A DNA stretch of 60,850 bases, counting the filler, from Dugesia japonica (taxonomy: Eukaryota), in assembly GCA_001938525.1 (NCBI GenBank). It is 5 parts of 5 records of this genome, joined end to end, with 100 filler letters (N's around TTAATTAATTAA, not from the genome) between each part and the next. Parts side by side here need not be neighbours in the genome. Positions count along the whole stretch, not along the records: positions 51,854 to 60,850 come from MQRL01179267.1; 4 more parts are not named here. The stretch is one strand, 5' to 3'. A program made the position numbers and the translations under genes. Shown here in pieces: positions 23,302 through 54,330 of the stretch (position 1 is the first letter of the stretch; the number at the start of each line of letters is the position of its first letter). A model generated the notes under the pieces. That model saw only the letters and a list, made by a program, of their open reading frames with translations. It had not been told where the DNA came from and ran no database searches.

Positions 23302-23401
23302 NNNNNNNNNNNNNNNNNNNNNNNNNNNNNNNNNNNNNNNNNNNNTTAATTAATTAANNNNNNNNNNNNNNNNNNNNNNNNNNNNNNNNNNNNNNNNNNN
23401 N
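23302..23401. other. Artificial 100-bp scaffold joint (N44-TTAATTAATTAA-N44); also at 31745-31844, 41961-42060 and 51754-51853
   Basis: Identical six-frame-stop linker centred in N runs four times. Confidence 0.95.
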
Positions 23402-23661: not shown

Positions 23662-24299
23662 AGTAGATAAATAGTAGCGCACTGTATCACCCATCCCTGG
23701 TGGCAGTGATATAGATTTTCGATGACACAAAATCCTGCAATCTGGTTGGTCGACACATTTTGGCTGAAAAATAAGTGATACAGTATCCTGAAATATGATC
23801 AACTGACACATTTCAATAGAAAAATTTCGGTGAAATAGTATCATGTAATCTGATTGTCCGTCTCATTTCTTTGTTTAAATTTAAAATTTATTTTTAAAGT
23901 TTTAATTTAGTCTTTAAAATTTTTTTAACTAGCTCCCTTAATTAATGTTAGGAACACTAATAGTAGTAAATTTACTGTGGTGAATTTCAAAACTGCTGTT
24001 TTATTTGCTTGTGGCCTAAACAATATTCGAAACATTTTTATATTTGGGTCATATCAATTGAATTACCGCGTCATTTAAATACTTATTTAACATAACAGCT
24101 AATCGTGTTTTAGGTAGATTTTAATAAATGAATGGCAGCATAATATTGATTTAATGATTTATCCAGTTGAATGTAAGGTACAAGAATATTATAAATGTAA
24201 TTTTTAACCATGTTATTCAAAATGAGCAAAGAATTTCATATCAAATATATGGTTTGATAGTAAGAATCGATTAAGCCAATGCACCACTATCTACCTATT
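23662..24299 (+). mobile_element. Short non-autonomous element bounded by inverted AGTAG-family termini
   Basis: Left AGTAGATAAATAGTAGCGCACTG; right end (reverse complement) AATAGGTAGATAGTGGTGCATTG; internal CCAAT-like repeats. Confidence 0.55.
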
Positions 24300-25479: not shown

Positions 25480-26480
25480 GAAAAAAATCCATATGAATTT
25501 GAAACTTCTTGTTAACGTTTTGATAAAAGAAAAGATACCATCATAAGATAAATTTGAATAGTTGTTTGATTCAAAGAACTTAACAATCGCAGCAATGATC
25601 TCAATGTGATCTTTGTAAATTTGACATAGATAAGAAAATATGGTAATCGAAAGGTGACATGTCTGTGTTATATGGTGGATTTTGTAAAGTTTCCCAATCC
25701 AGATTTTAAAATATTTCTTGAGTCAACTAGGCAACATGAAACTTTGCCTTATTCTGCAAAACAACAATCCCTTTTCAATTAATTCAACTTGGTTATTTTT
25801 AAGCAATGCTGAATGAACTCGGTCTCATTTCTGGCAGTATACATTGAAATTGAATGTCTGGTCGCATTCTAAGCATTTGCCATATATAATTCTACTTGCT
25901 GAATACCAGGCACTTTGCAAAATATTCGGGTAAATTTTAAATTTGGGGAAATACTTCAGAGGTTCAACCATGTTTTATCAAAGAAAACGAATGCTTAGTA
26001 ATAATATATAGAACCGATTTTTTTGTCTACAGTATTTATTCGATCAAGTATATACATATTTTGATTGAGTAAAAACAAAGAATAACAAATATCAACCTAT
26101 TGCTTTTATTTAAAATTACTTAAATCGCGAGGCACAATTTTGTACAATCTTTTGGAAAATCTTAGACTTTACAAATGATTCCAAATGGTTGATAGGGAAC
26201 AGGTAAGGTCTAAAGATTGTTCTTTTATTGTTTGCCTTTGGATTAACTTGAGTTGTCTTAAGTAAGTCATAATCAATATCAGCCAAAAGTTGACCAGAAT
26301 ACAGTTTTTCTTCAAGATTTGAATGTAATTTTCAAAGGATTTGAAATATTTCTTGTGCATTCGTTGGAATGTGCGCCTACCAAACACTTCAATTATTCTT
26401 CGAGTGGTTTCCGTCACGCTACAACCACTCTTGAACTCATATAACAAACAAGCGTGAACTTTGAATTTTGCTAGCGACAT
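25480..26480 (-). mobile_element. Mariner transposase remnant
   Basis: ACLLYEFKSGCSVTETTRRI HTH N-terminus, LDRINTVDKK and WETLQNPPYNTDMSPFDYHIF (YSPDLAPSDY-like). Confidence 0.85.
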
Positions 26481-31727: not shown

Positions 31728-32303
31728 CTGAATAAGAAAAAATANNNNNNNNNNNNNNNNNNNNNNNNNNNNNNNNNNNNNNNNNNNNTTAATTAATTAA
31801 NNNNNNNNNNNNNNNNNNNNNNNNNNNNNNNNNNNNNNNNNNNNACAATGTATTAACCAATGGGAATTAAATTAAATTTCACTATTTAAAGAATTCATAA
31901 AAAGGATATTGAAAAAATTAATTAAAATTTTAAATGTTATCCTAAAAATTAACATTAAATTAATTTTAATATATTACCAATAAAATGCTATTTGTTGAAT
32001 TTTCTTATTTCTAATTCTTTAATTCTATTAATAAACGACTTAACNNNNNNNNNNNNNNNNNNNNNCCAATTCGATTGGGTTAAATATATAGTTATCATAA
32101 ACACTGAAAATTATATTATTTACTAACAAATTAAACATATGAAACAAATACTTTAACAGAAATTCTAACATTATTCTAAATTATTTTTAAAAATATAGTT
32201 ATATATCAAATGGTAAAATGAACTGTAAAAAGTTCTAAATTCTATTATTTCATTAATTAAATTTACATAATTTTAAATTAAATATTTTACAATAAAAATT
32301 AAC

Positions 32304-33101
32304 TTTTGCTTTTCGGATCTTCGCAGTTAACTGCAAAAATAGCATGATCTTTGGATTTTAGTTTTTCCGAAGCTTTATCTAAATTCGGTTTTGATTCTTG
32401 GCAGTGTGGACACCATGGTGCATAAAAGAAAACCAACGCGTGTTTAATTTTAAGTAAAGTTTCATTAAAAGTTTCTTTGTTTAAATATTTTGTATGATTT
32501 AATGGTAAATCAGGCATCTAAAGAACATAATTTAAAAAAAACTGTGGTTTATAAAACTTTAACATACATTTTCATCATCACTATTGGATCCTGGTTGATT
32601 GTGAGTTGTATCAACCGTCTTTGAAAATTCAGCTGGATTTTCAATAAATTTCAAAAAATTCTCTTCTGTTGGTTGACCATTATAAATATGAACCTTATTA
32701 TCAGGACCGAACGCTTTAATAGTTGGATATCCTTCAATATTTTGTTGTTGACAAATATCTAATACGATAATAAATATTGTTACATTATTTGTTTGAATAT
32801 TTTAGAAAAATAAGTGATCAATTAATGAAATTTATCTACCGGTATTTTTAGAGTCTTCACAATTTAACAAAGCGAATGTATTTTTCGAATTGGAATTTGC
32901 CATTTTCGATGCTGCCTTAAATAATTCAGGTTTTGCATCTTGACAATGTGGACACCAAGGTGCATAAAACATTACCACAGTTGTGCCGTCAGTTTTCTTA
33001 GTGTAATTTTCAAAGAATTCTGCTGTCAATTCAAGTACTTTAACATTTGATGTGACGGATATTTTGGTGATTAATAAGAAACAAATTAACGACAATAACA
33101 T
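32304..33101 (-). CDS. Secreted protein-disulfide-isomerase-like protein with two thioredoxin domains (PDIA5-like CPHC sites); exons 33101-32840, 32758-32568, 32517-~32304; 3' end not found
   Basis: Signal-peptide-like MLLSLICFLLITKISVTS; two FYAPWCPHC motifs; IEGYPTIK cis-Pro motif; in-frame GT-AG introns. Confidence 0.88.
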
Positions 33102-33609
33102 TTTTTTTAAATAAAATTAAATGTTATAATTGAAATTACTCTTAGTTTATAAATAAGTGAACATTTTAGGAGTCATGGTACACGTTGATTTACGACATAT
33201 AATGGCACCCGTATTTTAGTACTATTTTATTGTTTTTAAAAACTAAAATCAATAAAATTATAATTCCTGTTTTTCAGCTTACTAGTCAAAATTCTATTGG
33301 TTAACCTCTAGTGTTGAAATTTTGTGACATTTTACTATTATTTCAATTTCAAATTTGTCATTATGGTAAAATATTTTTATTATGGTTTATACTTTTGTGC
33401 TACATTGTTGTATTACTTATTTTTACGGTCATGAGTTTTATTTCTATTTAAAATGGATTATTTGTAAAATTAATTCTTTGATGATATTTAAAAATTATTG
33501 ATAAACTAATTATTAAATCAATACAAATACACATTAAAATTTTTAGCTTTATAATTACAATTATTGAGAGAATAATTGTTTGGACTTAACCGTTTATCGT
33601 ACTTGAGAT

Positions 33610-41450: not shown

Positions 41451-42060
41451 CAATTTTCTCGCTCTTCTTTAATTGCTCATTTTAACCTATTAAAAAAACA
41501 TGCAATAATCAATAAATGTTCTTTCTTAATTTCATCTTTTCATTTTAGTTTTATATTTAATATTGTTTTTGGGTATTACAACTCAACAAAAGATTTTATG
41601 GTTCGTTATATCCAAATAGTTTATTAAACGTTGGGTGTGGATATTTTATTGTGTGTGTATTACGATAGTGTATAACTGCAATATATTAAGCAAAATATAA
41701 ATAATGTGATATATGTGTTTCCTTATATAAATAAAATAAAACACACCTTTTCAATAATAATATTTTGATATTTAACAAATACGTGTACACTATTTCTATC
41801 AGACTTATCGCACTAAATTTAATTAAATGAACGAGTGCCGCCCTTAGAGGTTGGAGTGTTCAATAATTGAATTCCGATTTACACTGAAAACTAATCATTA
41901 TTTATACTGAATCTATCAACTACATACACTTACATTACTTACATAAAAATCAATCTTTTTNNNNNNNNNNNNNNNNNNNNNNNNNNNNNNNNNNNNNNNN
42001 NNNNTTAATTAATTAANNNNNNNNNNNNNNNNNNNNNNNNNNNNNNNNNNNNNNNNNNNN

Positions 42061-42229: not shown

Positions 42230-43400
42230 TTATTAAAAACATTCAATAAAAATTTAGAAAGACCAGTTTGAACATTAATTTTTGGATCAATTGATCTAAT
42301 CATCAATGCTTCACATATGACTCTCTCCCAATAATCTTTAAAGTTTTTTGCACAAAATTTTAAAAGTATTTATACTGATAACTGATTATCAAAAAATATT
42401 ATTGCGAAACAATTTTAAAATTCAACGAGTCAATTCTGTATTTAAATAACCCATTTTTAAATTGTTTAAATCCTTCTGAATATGGAATAGTTAATACGTA
42501 ACTAAGCTTATCTACCTTTTTGGGTCTTTGATAATATTTTAACAATTTAAATTATTATTAACATTATTATTGACATCTTTAATTTCATTATTATTTTTAT
42601 AAACGATTTTATCAACTGTTTCACGATTTAATTTCTCCACAATTGATTTAGAATAACCATTTTTATTTAGTAAAGAATTAAAACTTTGAATATTAGCACA
42701 AGACTTCAAATATGAAGAGGCAAGAGTCCACGGTTTATACAACATTCTTTTAATCATATTNNNNNNNNNNNNNNNNNNNNNNNNNNNNNNNNNNNNNNNN
42801 NNNNNNNNNNNNNNNNNNNNNNNNNNNNNNNNNNNNNNNNNNNNNNNNNNNNNNNNNNNNNNNNNNNNNNNNNNNNNNNNNNNNNNNNNNNNNNNNNNNN
42901 NNNATTTCTGGATTGAATCTAATGTTTCTATGTAACGAATTCATATATTTTAGAAATGAGTCAATATCTACTTGGTTATTGGAAACCAGTAATATATCAT
43001 ACACATAACGTTTATAGACTAGTGGTTTATTTCCAATAAACAAATCGATCTTTACCTAAATATTTGACAAAAAACAAAGAAGCTAAAGTAGGTGCAAGAG
43101 GTAAACCTATACCAACTCAATGAACTTATTTGTACATCATTAAACAAAAAATATATATTATTTGAGTTCCTTACATGCAGTCACACTTAACAAATTATGC
43201 CCAGACAATGTTTTCTCCCAAAATTCACAACAAAGATTAATAGTTTCATCTAATGGATCAGTTGTAAATAAATTAAAAACATCAAAAAAACCATACATTC
43301 AGTACCACTAAAAATTTCAGAATTAGAAATAAAATTACAAAAATCAAAGCTATTCTTATTAATTTTAAAATTACAATTATTGTTGCTAAGGAAACAATAA
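42230..43400 (-). mobile_element. Second Penelope-like retroelement, decayed
   Basis: KPLVYKRYVYDILLV..MNSLHRNIRF, LNKNGYS, LTIPYSEG, WERVICEALMIRSIDPKINVQ; related to the element at 1990-3888. Confidence 0.85.
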
Positions 43401-44099: not shown

Positions 44100-45300
44100 A
44101 TACTCTCACAGCAATAAATTCATTGCATATTTTTATGTATTTCGATAATCAGTCACAATATATTAATTTGAAATAATTTTAAAATTTCTTCAGATCAGAA
44201 TTATATAGATTTGCCTAAAATGAAAAGATTTTCATCAGCGTTAGATTCTTTAATACAATCCATATAAATAAATGAAAGAATTTAGCTAGAAATATGTGCG
44301 AATCTATATAAAAGTGAATTATAAAATATTCTTCTGGTAAAGAGACATAAATTTAATGACATATTTTTCAAATAATAGTTAATATAATAATGTGTAGAAA
44401 TATCAGCTCGTAGTTTTGATTATATAAAATTTATATTAGCAAATAATTTATTCATTAAGTAATTCACACAATGCCTTTTTAGAATAATTACTTAGTGATT
44501 AAATTATTTGGTAATTCTATGAATTCCCGTGTACAGTTCTATATCAATTCCTAGAAATATTGACAACAGCGTAGGTAATTTTTGCCTGAAATTAAGGAAG
44601 TCATGTAATTTATCGTCGTCTTATTTGGGTTTGTTAGAATTATTTGAGAAATACTAATGCAACAGTTACCTGGCAGAAATAAATCTAATTGAAATCAATT
44701 GAAATCTATTTTCCAGTTTACAACAAATACTTGAAGAAAATGGACTCATAATATTTGCATATGAGAACAATTGTAAAATTGATTTAAAAAACAACAGCAA
44801 TTGTAACAACAATAACAAAAATACTTGTATCCCTTATTAATTCTTGAATATGGAATCATTTTTATTAAATTCACATACTATAAATTATCAATACCAAGGG
44901 TTATAAAAGGTCTTGTTGGAAATCTTTTCAAAATTGGTTTGTTCAGTGATTTCTCAACTATTCTGTAACTGTGACACAATTATAATATATATATGGCATA
45001 ATTTGCTCCTGTATAAATTTAAGAAACACACTATGTTTATCGCGTCATTAGAGTATGGCTCATTTGCCAGTATCCATTTACTCACCTGAAAATGAGCAAT
45101 GATAAATTACGGTATGCAAAGGAATACACACTTGCAATTGTCTGCTTTGCAAAGAGTTTATTTACTTATTGACATTGTTAAGTAGAACTTGTCGAGGCAT
45201 TCCAAGAAAAGATCGCATTTTCAGCAAAGCATAGAAAAGTTTGGTTTATTGTAATGCCACTCAATATTGTGGTGTCACTGAGTGCATTTCAACAATAATA
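44100..45300 (+). pseudogene. Possible heavily decayed non-LTR (LINE) reverse transcriptase
   Basis: Faint RSFDYI, LRKSCNLSS (RQGC.LSP-like), EENGLII and IYMA*FAPV remnants in LINE order. Confidence 0.25.
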
Positions 45301-45306
45301 AATTTC

Positions 45307-46650
45307 TTAGGTGGAAAAATATGACTTCGGCCTTTTTTAGTAAAAAAAGACTCTTTTAAAAGTTATATTTTAAAAACATTTACTCAAAATAAGTTCTATT
45401 TGAAGCTATGACTTCGTTCATTGTTCAAGCAACGAACAAGATAGGCAAAAGAAGAATTCTGACTCTAGTTATTTTCCCAATTTCTATGTCTTCCTTGGAA
45501 TTGAACGTGCTGATTGCATTGAGTGAAACAAATGATAATCTGAAGGAGCAATATCTGGTGAATATGNNNNNNNNNNNNAGATTTCTCGAATTACTCATCT
45601 TAAGTAATTCTTAACAACCGAATGAACATTTGCCTAGCGTTATTATATTGCCAAATTATCTTGTCTTTTGAATTATTGTCTATTCTTCTTTTCTGGTATT
45701 TTTTGGTTCCTCATTTGAAAATAATTAATTGCAATTGATAAGCTTCACCAGTGTCCGATAGTTTTAGCAGTTTATAATAATTGGCACCGTTTTGTACTCA
45801 CCAGATGTACAATGTTACACTTATTAATTTGTTTCATTTAATTCAATTAAAATAAGAATTTCATTTCATAACTTTATTAAAACACAAATAATTCTTCTGT
45901 AAAATTCTACTTGCTTTCTGAACGTTTCTTCCCAAAATTATTTTATGTAATTTATGTTTTATATAATTTATTAAAACAAATAGTTAAAAAAATATATTTT
46001 ATTAAATTATATAATATATTAACATTTAAAATTTTATATAATAAATTCCCAAAATTTCAATTAAATTTTACATTTACATTGCAAAAATTTAAAACATTAA
46101 AACATTATTTTAAAACATAAAAAAANTTACGCTTTTAAAAATACCTAATACTATCAAACCATAGATATTTGGTTTCGGAGTTAATATACCGAGTTCACTT
46201 AACTTTACCAAAGTTGCTTTGCCTTTTGAATTTTCAAAATGAATCCATTTTTTGCCTCCGTAACAATTTCAAGCAAAAATATTTTCTTTTCTGTCACAAA
46301 TTGTTTTTCACCATTAAATGTCTCTTTTCGTCACGTGGGACCCAATTGCTAATTTCCGAATGAATCCAATACTTTTTTGACTTTGCAAATTACATTGTTG
46401 GGTCACATTTCATGGAATAGCCAGTTAAGATTATGTTTCGTATGGGTATTTCAGTAACATCACTATGCTCTTTGCCCTTGATATTGTAATCAACATTTCT
46501 TAATCNGTAAAACCAATCATTGCATGTAGTATCTGAATAATCATACTCACCACAAATTTCTAAATGCAAGCTGTACATTTTTGCTGCCATTTTCCTGGCA
46601 ACATAATAATAAAGCAAGTCCTTACGCAAATGGTGCCTTTTTTGAATATT
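45307..46650 (-). mobile_element. Mariner (Mos1-like) element split by an AT-rich insert (~45840-46140)
   Basis: N-terminus LRKDLLYYY..AAKMYSL..GEYDYSDTTCNDWF; YSPDIAPSDYHLF at 45566-45525; TIR-like TTAGGTGGAAAAATATGA at 45307. Confidence 0.85.
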
Positions 46651-46879
46651 TGCAGGAATTTTGAATTGAAATATTTTTTAATCAATAAAGATTTAAACAG
46701 CAGACATACAAATATTTGTCACGTGTTAATATTTATTAAATGATGTTTGATTTTACAAATAATTATAACGTGTAAGCCCAATTTTTAACGGTGTCTTGAA
46801 AAAATAGCAGAGTGATAATTTTACAATTAACATAATTTAGTCGATATCCTGATATTTATAAATAATAAATATAAATAAT

Positions 46880-47454: not shown

Positions 47455-47560
47455 AATTGACAGTAGTGGCGCATCGCTACAACCCTCATTCCCGAGGGAT
47501 TAGAAATCTTTGTTATGACAGAAATTTGATTGGTCGCACACATGCTTTCAACAATTTTAT
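47455..47560 (+). mobile_element. AGTAG-family terminus fragment
   Basis: CAGTAGTGGCGCATCG..CCC..TTTGATTGGTCG. Confidence 0.45.
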
Positions 47561-48312
47561 TGATCGAAATGGATCATAAAATGACGTGTAAAATTATTTG
47601 GATTTAATTGATAGATTTTTATGATTTTTTTAAAATTAAGAAGAATTAATAATTTGCTTTCTTTAAATTCATAACTGAACTTTTCGATCAGTTTGTGTAG
47701 TTTTAACTAGACTAATCTCGATTAAAGTATGTGCATCTCTGGCAGCAATGCCTCCAACCATTCAAATCCGGTCTCAAATATATATTGCTACAACGGTATA
47801 ACTTTTATAAGATAAAAACAGTTAGTCATCAACGCCACAGATTTGGCTAGACACAGATCCGCAAAATGGTAAAGAATTTATAGTCAACTGTTATCAATTT
47901 ATTGCATGATATTAAATAAATCTTTAAATTAAATCATTACTGAAAATTATTACATATTACGATTAAAGAAAAGCATTACTAAAAATCCATTAAGTTAAAT
48001 CATTAAAGAAAAACACAATCGTTTAAATAAAAATTATTACCATTTAATTTAAATAAAAATAAATCCTTACTTATTGTCAAAGTTCATAATAATGATCATA
48101 ATTCGCAATAAGTTACCATATAATAAGTTACCAAGAATTCATAACGTATACAATTATTAATATCATATGAAAATAAATTTAATGACTGAAAAGAAATTAT
48201 TAATTTTAAAAATTATTAAATTCAAATAAAATATTTACGAAAATCATTACCGTTTAATTTAAATAAGAATAAATCCTTACTTATTTTCATAATTTATTAT
48301 TATCCAGCATTT

Positions 48313-48592
48313 GGTACCCAGACATTTCACATAAAACTTTTTCACATAAAAACTTTTCACATAAAACTTTTTCACATAAAACTTTTTCACATAAAAACTT
48401 TTCACATAAAACTTTTTCACANNAAAACTTTTCACATAAAACTTTTTCACATAAAACTTTTTCACATAAAAACTTTTCACATAAAACTTTTTCACATAAA
48501 AATTTTTCACATAAAAACTTTTCACATAAAAAGTTTTCACATAAAAACTTTTCACATAAAAACTTTTCACATAAAAAGTTTTCATATAAAAA
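48313..48592. repeat. Terminal array of about 18 x 15-bp TTTTCACATAAAA(A)CT units starting GGTACCC; probable foldback-type TIR of the adjacent MULE
   Basis: Directly visible; produces the spurious KKFYV-repeat ORF. Confidence 0.85.
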
Positions 48593-48979
48593 CGTATAAT
48601 AATATTAAAAAAATTAAAACAGTAAATCTTTTTTATTTAGTTTTGTTACGAATAAAGTCGTTTTAAAATTATAATTAATTATTTTTTAATTACTATTTCT
48701 TTTGTCTTAATTAGTGCATCGAAAATAAATTAATTATAAAGCATACATCTCGGTTGTTCCAACATTGATACAGGAGACTCTGTCAGGCTCAACAGATTTC
48801 TCCACAAACAAAATAATAAAAGTTAACCGAAATAGTAAAAGTTTAAAATTCCTATATTAACATAATAAATATATTGGATCAAATAAATAAAAGATCAGAA
48901 GAACAACAAATAAGAATTAACTTTTNNTCATCAATAAATACAAAGTTATTTTTGAGTAATTTCCCTATGCTTAAAAGAT

Positions 48980-49720
48980 AGTCACCTATATCTCCATTTT
49001 TTTACATTCTGTATAGGATTGAACAATAATTTCGATCTTACTATTATTGACAATATATTTTTTAATTGGATGCCTGATTTTAGTATGACCGCCAGCAGTT
49101 GCGAAATCAAAATTTTATTATCTCTATCATCNNNNNNNNNNNNNNNNNNNNNNNNNNNNNNNNNNNNNNNNNNNNNNNNNNTCATTTTTCAAATAATCTA
49201 TGAATTTCCATATTGTTGCATGCTTTGCAACAACTACTTTTTGGAATCGAGAATGGCATCCTTTGACAACATTATTTGTCCTCCTATATCCAGAAATTAC
49301 AGAATTATAACAATTNCAAGTATTGACAGCAAATTAAGNAGTAATTAAATTCCAATTTTCACCATTAGGTTCNGCTCCAATATAAACACGGCCAATATCT
49401 TTCACAAAATCTTTTAATACTGGAGATGAGCTGCTAAAAAGGTCTTTGAATACATCAATTATATCTTCTTCAGGTATAAATGGAAGTGCCATATATTTTA
49501 ACAAGGAATCTTTTATATCTCTACTTTCTTTACTCAAATATAGCCGAGAAAGACCTTTTTCTTGGACTTTTCTNNNNNNNNNNNNNNNAAAATGAAACAA
49601 ACATCCTTTAACTCGACTATTTGGAAGGACTTCTGATATTGCGCTTATAGCTCCAATTTCAAAGTCCATTATAATAGTTTCTAGATTAAAAATTAATTCA
49701 TTGCTAAGTGCAGCACTGAT
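48980..49720 (-). mobile_element. Mutator-like (MULE/Phantom-type) transposase remnant
   Basis: IMDFEIGAISAISEVLPNSRVKGCLFHF..RKVQEKGL..Y..MALPFIP. Confidence 0.85.
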
Positions 49721-49759
49721 GATATGCTGATATTATTTTTATTTATTATTTTTAAAAAC

Positions 49760-50245
49760 AATTCTATCTTGATATTTAAATTTTACTGTGTCTTTACTAT
49801 CAATCTTATTTATTTTTTCATTGATTTCTTTATTATTTCTCTACATTTCATATTTAATTAAATTTTCATTTACAACTAATAAACGAGTTTTGGCTTTTCT
49901 AGTTTCAGCATCAGTGCATTCCATATTACATTGCTTACACAACTGGTTATTCAATCTTGATAAAGCATCTGCGTTTGAATGTTTCTCTCCTTTTCTGTAC
50001 TCCAACTTGATATTTAAACTACTCAGAAAATTTATCCAATTTTGAAGTTGAGCTATTATTGATTTTCTTCTTGTTAACATAAAAGTTATAGGTTCATAGC
50101 CTGTTCGCAATACCAATTTTTCCGTATAAATAATGCTTAAAGTGTTGAGTAAAGTGAAATACTGAAATTAATTCTTTTTTCGTAATGCAGTATTGAACTT
50201 CATGTTTTGACATACTTTTTGAACCGTAAGCAATGATTCTTTTGT
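49760..50245 (-). mobile_element. Gypsy RNase H fragment
   Basis: RIIAYGSK..YCITKKEL..HFKHYLYG..LEYRKGEKHSNADALSR. Confidence 0.9.
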
Positions 50246-50362
50246 TAATGATAGATTATTAAAAAAATATTTATTCAAAATAAAACAGTTTCAAATTATC
50301 CTCTTTTAAAATCTGAATATTTAAACACTTCATTTTTATATTATATCACATTCCTATTTTTA

Positions 50363-51750
50363 TCATTCGAATTCCCGGAATCTTGTTGGTTTACGTCTTT
50401 CTCTTGTAGAATTTCTTCTTCCTTGTCTCTCGCTTATTAATTGTTCCGGTTTGATTATTGAACTTCTTTTTGATTGGCTTATTATTGTTGTGTCCATTAG
50501 ACGCTTTTCTCCTTTCTCCTCTAGCTTTTCTATTGTAAATCTTTTCATTTGATTAACATTACGAATTAGCGATTTCCCTTTGTAACTCATTCTTATATTA
50601 TCGTATGGTAATATTTCCGTTACTTCATATGGGCCTATATATCGCTTCTTTAACATTCTTTTCTTTTCTGATTTGAAACTTACCATATCGCTAATTTTTA
50701 TTTGATGGTTATTATTAATAATTACATTCTCTTTTGCTTTTAAAATTTGATTTATTCTTACTAAATTTACTCTAATAGTCTCTAAATATTGATCCAGACT
50801 TTTTGAGTTGGCTTGTTCTTTATTTAACTAAGCTTGAAATGGTTTGCTAAAAGTTATTTCGAAAGAAGAATAATTAGTTGTTTCATTTTTTGTTATTCTC
50901 ATACCCATTTCGACAAATGGAATGGCATCTATCCAATTTGTGAGAAATTTCAAGCTGGTTGCATAAATTCTTTCTTTTGCAGTTCTAAAGATTTTTTCTA
51001 CCAAGCCGTTCTCTTGATGATAGTATTGGCTTTCAAAGGTTTGATTTATTTTAAGAACTTTAAAAACTTCTTCCATAAAATTGTTTTTGAACTAACTTCC
51101 ATTATCAGAGTGAATAATTTTTGGCATTTCAAAGACAGTGATCCATATTTTAAATTATTTATTTATTACTTGTCTTGAGGGATTAACAATTATTTTATTT
51201 TAAGAGGGATTAACATAGTATATCTTGAGAAGACATCTATCACACCTAAAATATATCTATATCCTTTACATTCTGGTAATGGTCCAGTGATATCTATGCA
51301 TATTTTTTCAAATGCCTCTTTAGCTACAAAATGTTTCTCAGGAATGTAGTTTGAAATTATTCNNNNNNNNNNNNNNNNNNNNNNNNNNNNNNNNNNNNNN
51401 NNNNNNNNNNNNTAAAGGATTTTATCTCTTTAATCATATTCTTCCAGTCATAATAATTCTGAATTAATTCTTTTGTCTTTATAAATCCTGGATGGCCCAT
51501 GTTGTTATGATAATATTCCATTATTTCCTTGTTTCTTTGAGACGTGAAATCATTTTTTAGAATAATAGGCTTCTCATCATTTTCTTTCTGGATCAGTTTT
51601 ACATTTCTTCGTTTATTTTTTCATTAAGTCTGAGTTCACATTGTTCACATTATGGTCGGCTCATATAGTCTGCGTTTATGTGTAATCTGCTAAGTCGGTG
51701 TTCAATATTAAAATCATATTCATCTAATTCTATGATCCAAGTAAAATACT
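50363..51750 (-). mobile_element. Gypsy RNase H end + integrase (separate copy from 49760-50245)
   Basis: EYDFNIEHR..NADYMSR, HNNMGHPG, ICIDITGPLP..GVIDVFSR, YHQENGLVEK, RYIGPYEV (GPY/F module). Confidence 0.9.
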
Positions 51751-51854
51751 ATGNNNNNNNNNNNNNNNNNNNNNNNNNNNNNNNNNNNNNNNNNNNNTTA
51801 ATTAATTAANNNNNNNNNNNNNNNNNNNNNNNNNNNNNNNNNNNNNNNNNNNNG

Positions 51855-52478
51855 TATTCACATAGCAAAGCATACATGAAAAATGTTCATTTTTTGATTC
51901 TCAGTTCAACAATATCAAATTTGTTATTTTATCATAAGTATTTCTTGAAATAATAAATTTTCGTTCTCNGTGAGACATGGAACCTGGTGATTTTCTATCT
52001 TTTGAACTAAAAATATTTTTACAACAAACCCTATACAAAATATGTTTGGAATTTTATTCTAAGTCGAATAGTACCATTTACAAAACGATTCGATAAAAAT
52101 TCGTTGGGAAATTCTTGGATCAAGGTCAAAAGTGCCAGTGCGCTCATAACTTTTCTCGGAGAACCAAGCATATTCGCATAGCAAACCCTATATAGAAAAT
52201 GTTCACCTTTCAATTCTATGAAGATGCATATCAAATTTATTTGATCATCATTATTATTTTAAAAGTTCGATTTTCCATGCTCGGCGGGTCATGGTAATCG
52301 GGAATTTTCTATCTTTTGAACTAAAAATATTTTTACAACAAACCCTATACAAAACTTGTTTGGAATTTTATTCTGAATTGAATGCTATCATTTCTAGATC
52401 TATAGGATAAGTATTGATCAATAAATTCATGGATCAAGGTCTACAATGCTAGTGCGCTCATATCTATCTACTCCCTAC
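51855..52478 (-). mobile_element. AGTAG-family terminus with a ~315-bp internal tandem duplication, abutting the capsid-like ORF
   Basis: Reverse complement AGTAGGGAGTAGATAGATATGAGCGCACT; 51975-52148 repeats at 52288-52461; contains TCAAGGTC. Confidence 0.6.
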
Positions 52479-52855
52479 TGATTATATTGTTTTTTCCATG
52501 TTTCTGCTGTTAATATTATATTTAGCATCGTTGATATTACACATAGATCATTTATTGTTTCTACATCTGGTAAACCTAATGTTAATCTCATTGATTTAAA
52601 CAAACTTGGAATGACGTTATTTTCTAATGTTATTTTATCTTTCGATGTTTCTGGAATTATAATCTCAATTATAAAGTATAACATTGAATTACAAATGTCA
52701 AGTGGATTTGTCGATTGAAGTGATTAAAAAACTATGTCACCTGATGCATTTAAATTAATTATTGAACCTGATGATGGTGAAATTTTAAGTGTATCATTTT
52801 TTATTGGTGTATGTTGAAATTGAATATTACTGTCTAAATCTAACTTTGTCTCCAT
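52475..52855 (-). pseudogene. Polinton/Maverick (adintovirus-like) major capsid protein N-terminal fragment
   Basis: METKLDL..ISPSSGSIINLNASGDIVF*SLQSTNPLDICNSMLYF..ITLENNVIPSLFKSMRLTLGLPDVETINDLCVISTMLNII matches my recollection of the Polinton double-jelly-roll MCP N-terminus; one in-frame TAA at 52724-52726; intronless. Confidence 0.65.
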
Positions 52856-53242
52856 TTTATTAAAGTTAAAAATTAACCACTTCATTAAATTTTTCACCTA
52901 ACTTGAATGTGTAGCAATATAGTGTCACCAATATTATAAAAATAATAAATGATAAAAATAAAATAATATTTTTTTGTCGTTTAACATTTGAGTTTAATCT
53001 TTCATTAATATTTAAAAAACTTGTTAACACTTTTCTTCCAGCTACATTAGTATTTTTTTTCTTTTTGGTGGAGTGACATTTCTTTTTTCTAGATTTATCA
53101 TTTCATTTCTTTTTTCTGTTAAAGTCATTTTTGTTTTCTCTTCATGAATTTATTCAAAGTTTTTTGTTTTAACATTAAAAAAATAATTTCCATATTGATC
53201 ATTTATAAAAGTATTTGTTTTTTCATTATAATAATATTTTAG

Positions 53243-53494
53243 TCAATGATATTTTTTTCTTTCAGGTTTTACATTTAAATCTCTTAATGCTTTATTTAAA
53301 GCAACAGTTGATATCCCAAGTTCATTTGCTATAATGTGATCTTTTATATTTGGATTTTTAGATTTATTTTCTTTATATCTTGCAAGTATACAAATCTTTT
53401 GAGATTTCAAAAATAAATTAGAATCAAACTCATTTGCACATTTTATATTTTTTTCAGCATTTTTAAATGTCGACTTTTCAAATTCTAGAGCAAT
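53243..53494 (-). pseudogene. Helix-turn-helix protein, Polinton accessory type (ATG not present)
   Basis: FDSNLFLKSQKICILARYKENKSKNPNIKDHIIANELGISTVALNKALRDLNV; same strand as and upstream of the MCP-like ORF. Confidence 0.6.
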
Positions 53495-54147
53495 TTTCTA
53501 CTATTAAATATAAATCCCTAGTTTATTTACTAATTTTTAGCAACTTTTTAGCACTTTGTTAGCACTTTGTTAGCAAACTTTTAATTGATTCCAACAGTCA
53601 ATTATCTTTTCAATTATCTACTACCATTATTAAAATCATTTTAAATAGAAAATATTCTCTTGACATTTTTTTTTGATTAATAATTTTGAAATAAAATAAA
53701 AAATATTCGCAATTTTAAAATTTAAAATAATTTAAATATTTTTAATTTTTTATAATTTTTTTTATTATTTGAAAATTTTTTCTTGAATTGAATATTTAAA
53801 TTTTGAAATATTGAAAATGAATTTGATAAAATTGTAAATAAAATATTTTTTTATAATTGATTTTTTTGAAAGAATTATTTTCTAATTTAAACGAAGAAAG
53901 AAGTTTGGAAGATAAATTCAAATTCTAAATTTAAAACATTTTTAATATATTAAAAATAATTATTAGGTCTACAAATAAAAAATCCAAATTGTTATTATAT
54001 TATATAATTAATTGAATTGTTTAACTATTCCGTTTTACCATTAATTTTCAAATTAAACATTAATATAGCATTTAGTTTAAAAAGAATCAAGCAGAAACGT
54101 TATCAAATTTGAGTTCAACCGTAACCTGCTTGGGAACAGAAAAGGTT

Positions 54148-54330
54148 AGTAGGTAGATAGTAGCGCATAATACCATACCCCTGTGCTCAGTCACTTTTGG
54201 ATGATTGTATAGTGTACTATTTTTTATTGGTTTTCATTCGCAATATATCATTTCTGATAGGTTGATTACAAATTTTGACTAGTATACTATTTTTTCACTG
54301 ACTGCAAATTTCTTGTGACTTCATGTTTCT
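54148..54330 (+). mobile_element. AGTAG-family terminus
   Basis: AGTAGGTAGATAGTAGCGCA..CCCC followed by AGTGTACT/AGTATACT..ATTGG repeats. Confidence 0.6.

Follow-up and report, generated by a model that had tools for sequence, protein, structure and literature searches.

On the minus strand of a 60,850-nt stretch of Dugesia japonica DNA (the whole of which we refer to as the window) lie two frames, both intronless and co-oriented as the original prediction had it: a capsid-like frame and, about 390 bp upstream of it, a short frame for which a helix-turn-helix (HTH) fold is predicted (Table 1). The capsid-like frame starts with an ATG at 52855 and extends to 52478 over 126 codons without a frameshift, interrupted by a single in-frame TAA at 52726-52724, 43 codons past the ATG. 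The HTH frame, 84 codons from stop to stop (53497-53246), contains the residues IANELGIS and has neither an ATG nor an intron. At its low-coordinate side, the capsid frame abuts the end of a repeat element that begins with the letters AGTAG. On the right, the locus is bounded by another such end, at 54148, together with a stretch of 15.6% GC (53681-54147).

The surroundings are those of a repeat-rich eukaryotic scaffold, full of mobile-element scraps, with many assembly gaps and a GC content of 19-31% in 2-kb bins. Gaps of 100 bases at 23302-23401, 31745-31844, 41961-42060, and 51754-51853 carry a linker, TTAATTAATTAA, in their middle; as these gaps are scaffolding joins, adjacency across them is uncertain. 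Besides the elements listed in Table 1, two pieces at 3514-3885 (+) and 42542-42940 (-), near the reverse transcriptase frame, are by eye what we take to be Penelope-like. A 15-bp tandem array at 48265-48651, comprising about 18 registered copies of a 132-nt reference, is open in several frames on both strands. The ubiquitin-like and thioredoxin/PDI-like frames are probably host genes or exons.

Table 1. Features of the locus and of the surrounding window (positions in window coordinates; a dot marks features without strand)
Feature	Position	Strand	Basis
Pseudogene covering the N-terminal third of a major capsid protein (double jelly roll, Polinton-type)	52478..52855	-	phmmer, hhalign, profile
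AT-rich spacer, 19% GC, stop-broken Lys/Asn-rich frames	52856..53242	-	six-frame translation, GC
Open frame of 84 codons without ATG, predicted three-helix HTH	53243..53497	-	AlphaFold2 model, structural neighbours
Tandem repeat with an 11-bp unit (3.9 copies), a short way upstream of the HTH frame	53534..53575	.	
End of repeat element, AGTAG-led terminal motif (variant form), abutting and cutting the capsid gene; element runs to lower coordinates	52452..52479	-	motif, homology end
Body of the 52479-ended element: two direct repeats of about 314 bp, 75% identical, 30% GC	51855..52465	.	
Another AGTAG-type end, oriented away from the relic	54148..54167	+	
AGTAG-type ends	1416, 1792, 23662, about 24299, 24323, 52479, 54148, 58266	-, -, +, -, +, -, +, +	
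AGTAG-type ends, core only	39936, 47464	+, +	
Decayed Gypsy-like element with rve integrase and zinc-binding domains and, by eye, an RNase H-like piece	49844-51620	-	
MULE transposase remnant (piece at 49337-49732)	48982-49732	-	PF10551, E 2.4e-5, below cut-off
Reverse transcriptase frame, 348 codons	2209-3252	+	PF00078
Ubiquitin-like frames and thioredoxin/PDI-like exon with WCPHC motif (probable host genes/exons)	5533-7190, 32835-33116	-, -	

The capsid frame and its relatives

The original prediction had singled out a 126-codon frame with one stop and a capsid-like residue pattern; frame and pattern are there, and when the translation, with X at the stop, was used as a phmmer query against 1.84 billion proteins, it returned 38 matches at E<=0.001, the best at 4e-25, well beyond what chance would give. 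Three of these (P0015, P0029, and P0038), long multi-stretch repeat proteins, were set aside. The remaining top matches align at their own N-termini, and the full-length ones among them measure 408-482 aa. When 12 capsid-like matches were scanned, ten scored above the threshold set for PF21738 (double jelly roll-like domain), one fell just under it, and one gave no match. The fragment alone has no Pfam match, because the PF21738 match begins at residue 65-93 or later in its relatives.

Set against the profile of its relatives, the frame was aligned by hhalign to columns 6-132 of 429 with a probability of 99.8%. In the window, a profile built from 19 relatives matches solely at 52855-52478, over positions 1-131 of 421 (E 5e-36), every match in the rest of the window having E>0.4. 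Since positions 1-131 of this profile are the only ones matched, the 3′ two thirds of the capsid gene are missing from the window; with one stop inside it and positions 132-421 absent, the locus holds no complete, uninterrupted capsid ORF. What is left is 37-53% identical to the relatives over 115-135 aa (52-53% for the nearest ones, P0047-P0049) and retains 31 of 40 well-conserved columns, natural relatives retaining 63-100%. Judged by its sequence—one stop, no frameshift, conserved columns kept—the fragment is not heavily eroded. In a tree of 34 N-terminal capsid rows, it joined no well-supported set and sat on a terminal branch of 0.96 (median, 0.52). None of ten clusters looked up bore a real name, and the nearest relatives are almost all metagenomic proteins. 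By sequence, the capsid profile matched none of the solved structures; PHROGs yielded nothing useful, viral contigs gave no relative when scanned with the fragment or the capsid alignment, and a scan of genome contigs gave none either.

What would the intact protein look like? An AlphaFold2 model (pLDDT 80) of a complete relative, P0005, which shares 39% identity with the fragment, found as its top Foldseek matches the major capsid proteins of PBCV-1 (Vp54), an iridovirus, Sputnik, and mavirus (E down to 2.5e-14, TM about 0.55-0.63), and in BFVD it matched viral capsid proteins, including one entry each from an adintovirus and a MELD virus. As read from this modelled relative rather than from the fragment, the predicted fold of the family is a double jelly roll. 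By the same model, the part kept at the locus ends inside the first jelly roll, so that the fragment would be unable to form a capsomer.

Metagenome contigs encoding capsid relatives provided 15 loci, and most loci without a further core gene are contigs of 1-2.4 kb; 25 ORFs from seven of the 15 contigs were scanned with Pfam. A further core gene was recognized by tool at five loci (L001, L002, L005, L008, and L011), namely pPolB at L002 and L011 (the latter matching L002 at E 2e-91), an rve integrase with a PLA2 domain at L001 and L005, and an A32 ATPase at L005, L008, and L011 (L008 being 87% to L005). L005 additionally shows a weak adenovirus pX match, below cut-off. Further ORFs of these loci look penton-like and adenain-like by their motifs and have no Pfam match. 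As to domain arrangement, integrase, zinc finger, and PLA2-like domain are fused in one ORF of L005 (5191-6513, minus strand); separate, neighbouring PLA2 and integrase ORFs occur in L001 and in L018, a viral contig. The latter came from a scan with the polymerase, which brought up 21 pPolB-bearing viral contigs. Six of them match the capsid profile with E<1e-20, and in L018, rve, PLA2, A32, PF21738, and pPolB all occur together. The fragment's capsid type is related to the classic type of L018 weakly in pairwise comparison (E 3e-4), and clearly only by profile (380 bits). Scanning viral contigs with the ATPase alignment and the integrase alignment gave no relative.

Polintons and adintoviruses are defined by a gene set of pPolB, rve integrase, A32 ATPase, PLA2, and capsid (PMC8502044; PMC8097293). 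The PolBs of the relatives match PF03175 weakly or not at all, and the relatives carry PLA2 and pX-like genes, which are assigned to the Alpha-type virion module in section 3.2 of PMC8502044. A decayed capsid gene of this group, as originally predicted, is supported by the sequence, by the fold of a relative, and by the relatives' gene neighbours. Separately, one metagenome contig of 18% GC (L015) contains, at 782-1325 and directly behind a RING-finger gene, a broken piece of a capsid from this family, likely another endogenous relic.

The upstream frame

Does the HTH frame belong to the same element? Its AlphaFold2 single-sequence model reaches a pLDDT of about 95 over residues 31-70 and places helices at 26-47, 53-60, and 64-73, in the order of an HTH, in keeping with the HTH protein named beforehand; the frame likely encodes such a domain. 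Most structural neighbours of the model are HTH domains of the TetR, AraC, and sigma types, but their scores are tied and, at Z<=6.6, do not reach the threshold that the tool itself sets; among viral models, the best Foldseek match has E 0.036, and Pfam HTH_10 was matched at E 0.17, below cut-off. Atlas leads to HTH families point to bacterial, phage, or unrecorded proteins, with a recognition value of 2217, below the mark of 2300. A phmmer comparison with 1692 ORFs of 36 Polinton-type loci had its best match at E 0.27 (reversed control, 0.46), and no obvious HTH gene was seen by eye upstream of the capsid gene in the 15 cases checked. The spacer between the two frames, whose read-through translation gave no homolog, might derive from the HTH gene as its decayed tail.

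Some invertebrate Polintons may carry a similar small HTH protein. Strand, spacing, and the lack of introns incline us slightly towards a small DNA-binding gene that belonged to the same element and has decayed. It is nevertheless quite conceivable that the capsid relic is real and the HTH frame unrelated to it, being a scrap of another transposon or a chance frame: protein and viral-contig searches returned no sequence relative, all Atlas leads stay under 0.9, an ATG is missing, and the window harbours Mos1-type (Tc1/mariner-type) HTH remnants at 26172-26480 and 46393-46677. Against such an unrelated origin stand the shared orientation at 390 bp from the capsid gene, the absence of an intron, and the confidence of the single-sequence HTH model, along with the lack of any Pfam match to transposase HTH families.

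AGTAG-ended repeats at the edge of the capsid frame

The capsid homology stops at 52478-52481, and the repeat end begins at 52479 on the minus strand, its AGTAG overlapping the last capsid codon. That the capsid gene was cut by the AGTAG-ended element is supported by this very coincidence of bases, and the predicted cut at 52478 proves right to within two of them. This element runs into the gap at 51754-51853, and its far end was not seen. On the far side of the repeat, the 3′ remainder of the capsid gene was not found within the window, where the gap follows; its absence there, and the fact that no target duplication was seen, speak against a simple insertion.

The original wording, "another" AGTAG-type terminus, is justified: the strict motif (AGTAG, five bases, TAGTRGCGSA) occurs six times in the window compared to none in 100 shuffles, although this comparison overstates its significance, because the sites themselves supplied the pattern. 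At 52479, the motif has a variant form that solely a looser pattern detects. An end of about 20 nt (AGTAG, five bases, TAGTRGCGCA) is common to otherwise different sequences. There are at least 7 AGTAG-type ends in 61 kb, and two of them, at 23662 (+) and about 24299 (-), point towards one another over a distance of about 640 bp, as in a MITE; the flanks of this one inward pair showed no target-site duplication by eye.

What kind of element has such ends? More likely than Polinton ends, they are probably those of an ordinary short-TIR transposon family. Like MITEs and non-autonomous DNA transposons with short TIRs in general (MULE/Phantom-like ones among the candidates), they have a short common end motif, high density, an inward pair around 640 bp, and internal direct repeats, and the window also contains the MULE transposase scrap; they differ in that neither a target-site duplication nor a transposase is tied to the AGTAG ends here. 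Passages of PMC6446971 did not assign the AGTAG-ended repeats to a superfamily, and among the matches listed in the literature search no paper names an AGTAG terminus. A Helitron 3′ end was rejected as a candidate, because 60 nt folded at each of five ends had no hairpin in common (0 to -5.8 kcal/mol). The thought that the 52479 end might pair with the one near 47464, enclosing the MULE scrap, likewise found no support, as neither a capsid remainder nor a duplication was seen there.

We consider it unlikely that the AGTAG ends are Polinton termini, in other words ends of non-autonomous derivatives, and that one Polinton-type end cut the capsid gene of another Polinton. All strict sites do begin with AGTAG, one of them with AGTAGT, and (AGT)2 is given as the commonest end of vertebrate Mavericks in PMC8097293. 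Yet AGTAGT is found at just one of the six strict sites, the ends share about 20 nt as opposed to the 46-1447 bp of Maverick TIRs in that same text, and the MITE-like pair and the density of ends also speak against this. The motif is also found in none of the 21 viral pPolB loci and once, inside a gene, in the 15 metagenome loci, few of which reach their own ends. More improbable still is an undescribed Polinton lineage, hitherto represented by metagenomic contigs alone, with an HTH regulator before its capsid gene, with the dense AGTAG repeats as its mobilized non-autonomous derivatives; if true, Polinton-driven MITE-like elements would make up a major part of this genome. On the preferred reading as a short-TIR family, the repeats are abundant and represent a modest lead for repeat annotation.

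Origin and meaning of the relic

When the ORFs of the 36 Polinton-type loci were compared with the window by tblastn, no other Polinton gene besides the capsid was detected in this gap-containing sequence, merely generic rve pieces, and A32/FtsK ATPase, adenain protease, and penton had no match. The rve matches at 50.8-51.4 kb accompany an Integrase_H2C2 zinc-binding domain, are Gypsy-like, and are not tied to the relic. Elsewhere, at 44830-44964 (-), there is an rve-like integrase scrap, of either Gypsy or Polinton origin, matched by Polinton integrases at E about 1e-6, with no Pfam match and likewise no tie to the relic. Around the genes, we found no inward-facing TIRs of 46-1447 bp with a 6-bp target duplication, and the ends at 52479 and 54148 are not the relic's own TIRs, because both face away from it. 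With tests for a complete capsid ORF and for enclosing TIRs both negative, the locus is filed as a relic and not as an intact Polinton.

Together, our preferred reading, to which we assign a probability of about 0.88, is that the locus retains the first third of a Polinton-type capsid gene from an integrated Polinton virus, decayed and likely cut by insertion of an AGTAG-ended transposon. A full Polinton element would, by the known biology of the family, have entered the host chromosome by means of its rve integrase; an insertion of the repeat, or a deletion anchored at it, may then have deleted the 3′ two thirds of the capsid gene or moved them elsewhere; what remains, part of the first jelly roll, would be a non-functional fossil. 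The capsid relic is most likely the dead leftover of an old integration.

Could it have arisen otherwise? That free virus DNA, as a contaminant, was joined into a gap-rich scaffold during assembly might be suspected from the many gaps, one of them 630 bp from the junction, and from the environmental contigs that supply the closest relatives. We hold such an artefact to be very improbable, as no N occurs between 51970 and 54740, the stop codon and the broken upstream frames fit decay rather than a live virus, and the GC content matches that of the host. Of the words of this stretch, 0.22-0.51 also recur in six runs, which come from three studies and bear a single organism label; this is weak support for a host location, because one run may be the source and flanking repeats could explain these shares. 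Among the 24 runs listed, none was from RNA, which says nothing about expression. The good preservation of the fragment—a lone stop, an intact reading frame, most of the well-conserved columns—might instead recall a capsid piece domesticated by the host for some function. This seems hardly credible given a stop after 43 codons, an end set by the repeat, and less than one jelly roll, and recent inactivation would preserve the sequence equally well. Nor is there much to recommend a giant virus (Nucleocytoviricota) or a virophage as the source in place of a Polinton: the top fold matches are indeed PBCV-1, iridovirus, and virophage capsids, but at 7-16% identity they reflect a common fold, whereas the sequence relatives, 37-53% identical, belong to small elements that also encode pPolB and rve integrase. 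These gene neighbourhoods largely exclude such an origin.

With the preferred reading as an integrated Polinton, the locus can be placed among known systems. It resembles Polintons/Mavericks, or 'adintoviruses' (class Polintoviricetes; Starrett et al., PMC8502044), in its PF21738-family capsid, in being intronless, and in being degraded within a host chromosome, and its capsid relatives are linked to pPolB, rve integrase, A32/FtsK ATPase, PLA2, and pX-like genes as theirs are. It differs from them in being a 1-kb scrap without polymerase, integrase, ATPase, protease, penton, or enclosing TIRs in the window, and in having nearest relatives that are almost all metagenomic, at the identities given above. 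Comparable, too, are the degraded endogenous Maverick/adintovirus relics of vertebrates (PMC8097293) and of human chromosome 7 (PMC8502044), which likewise comprise a capsid pseudogene with a nonsense lesion, interrupted by mobile elements and without discernible TIRs; here, by contrast, the host is AT-rich, the capsid subclade is another one, and far fewer genes are preserved. To the capsids of PBCV-1 (Vp54), iridovirus, Sputnik, and mavirus, the likeness is confined to the fold of the relative P0005, at about 10% identity.

Degraded copies are the norm for Polintons in the vertebrate genomes surveyed (PMC8097293; PMC8502044 section 3.3). In this respect, the relic is an ordinary endogenous Polinton capsid pseudogene of a well-known kind. 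What it adds is the record of an AT-rich eukaryote that was once infected or colonized by a Polinton-type virus of this capsid subclade. Since its near relatives are nearly all metagenomic sequences, the locus could help to assign a host to the subclade.
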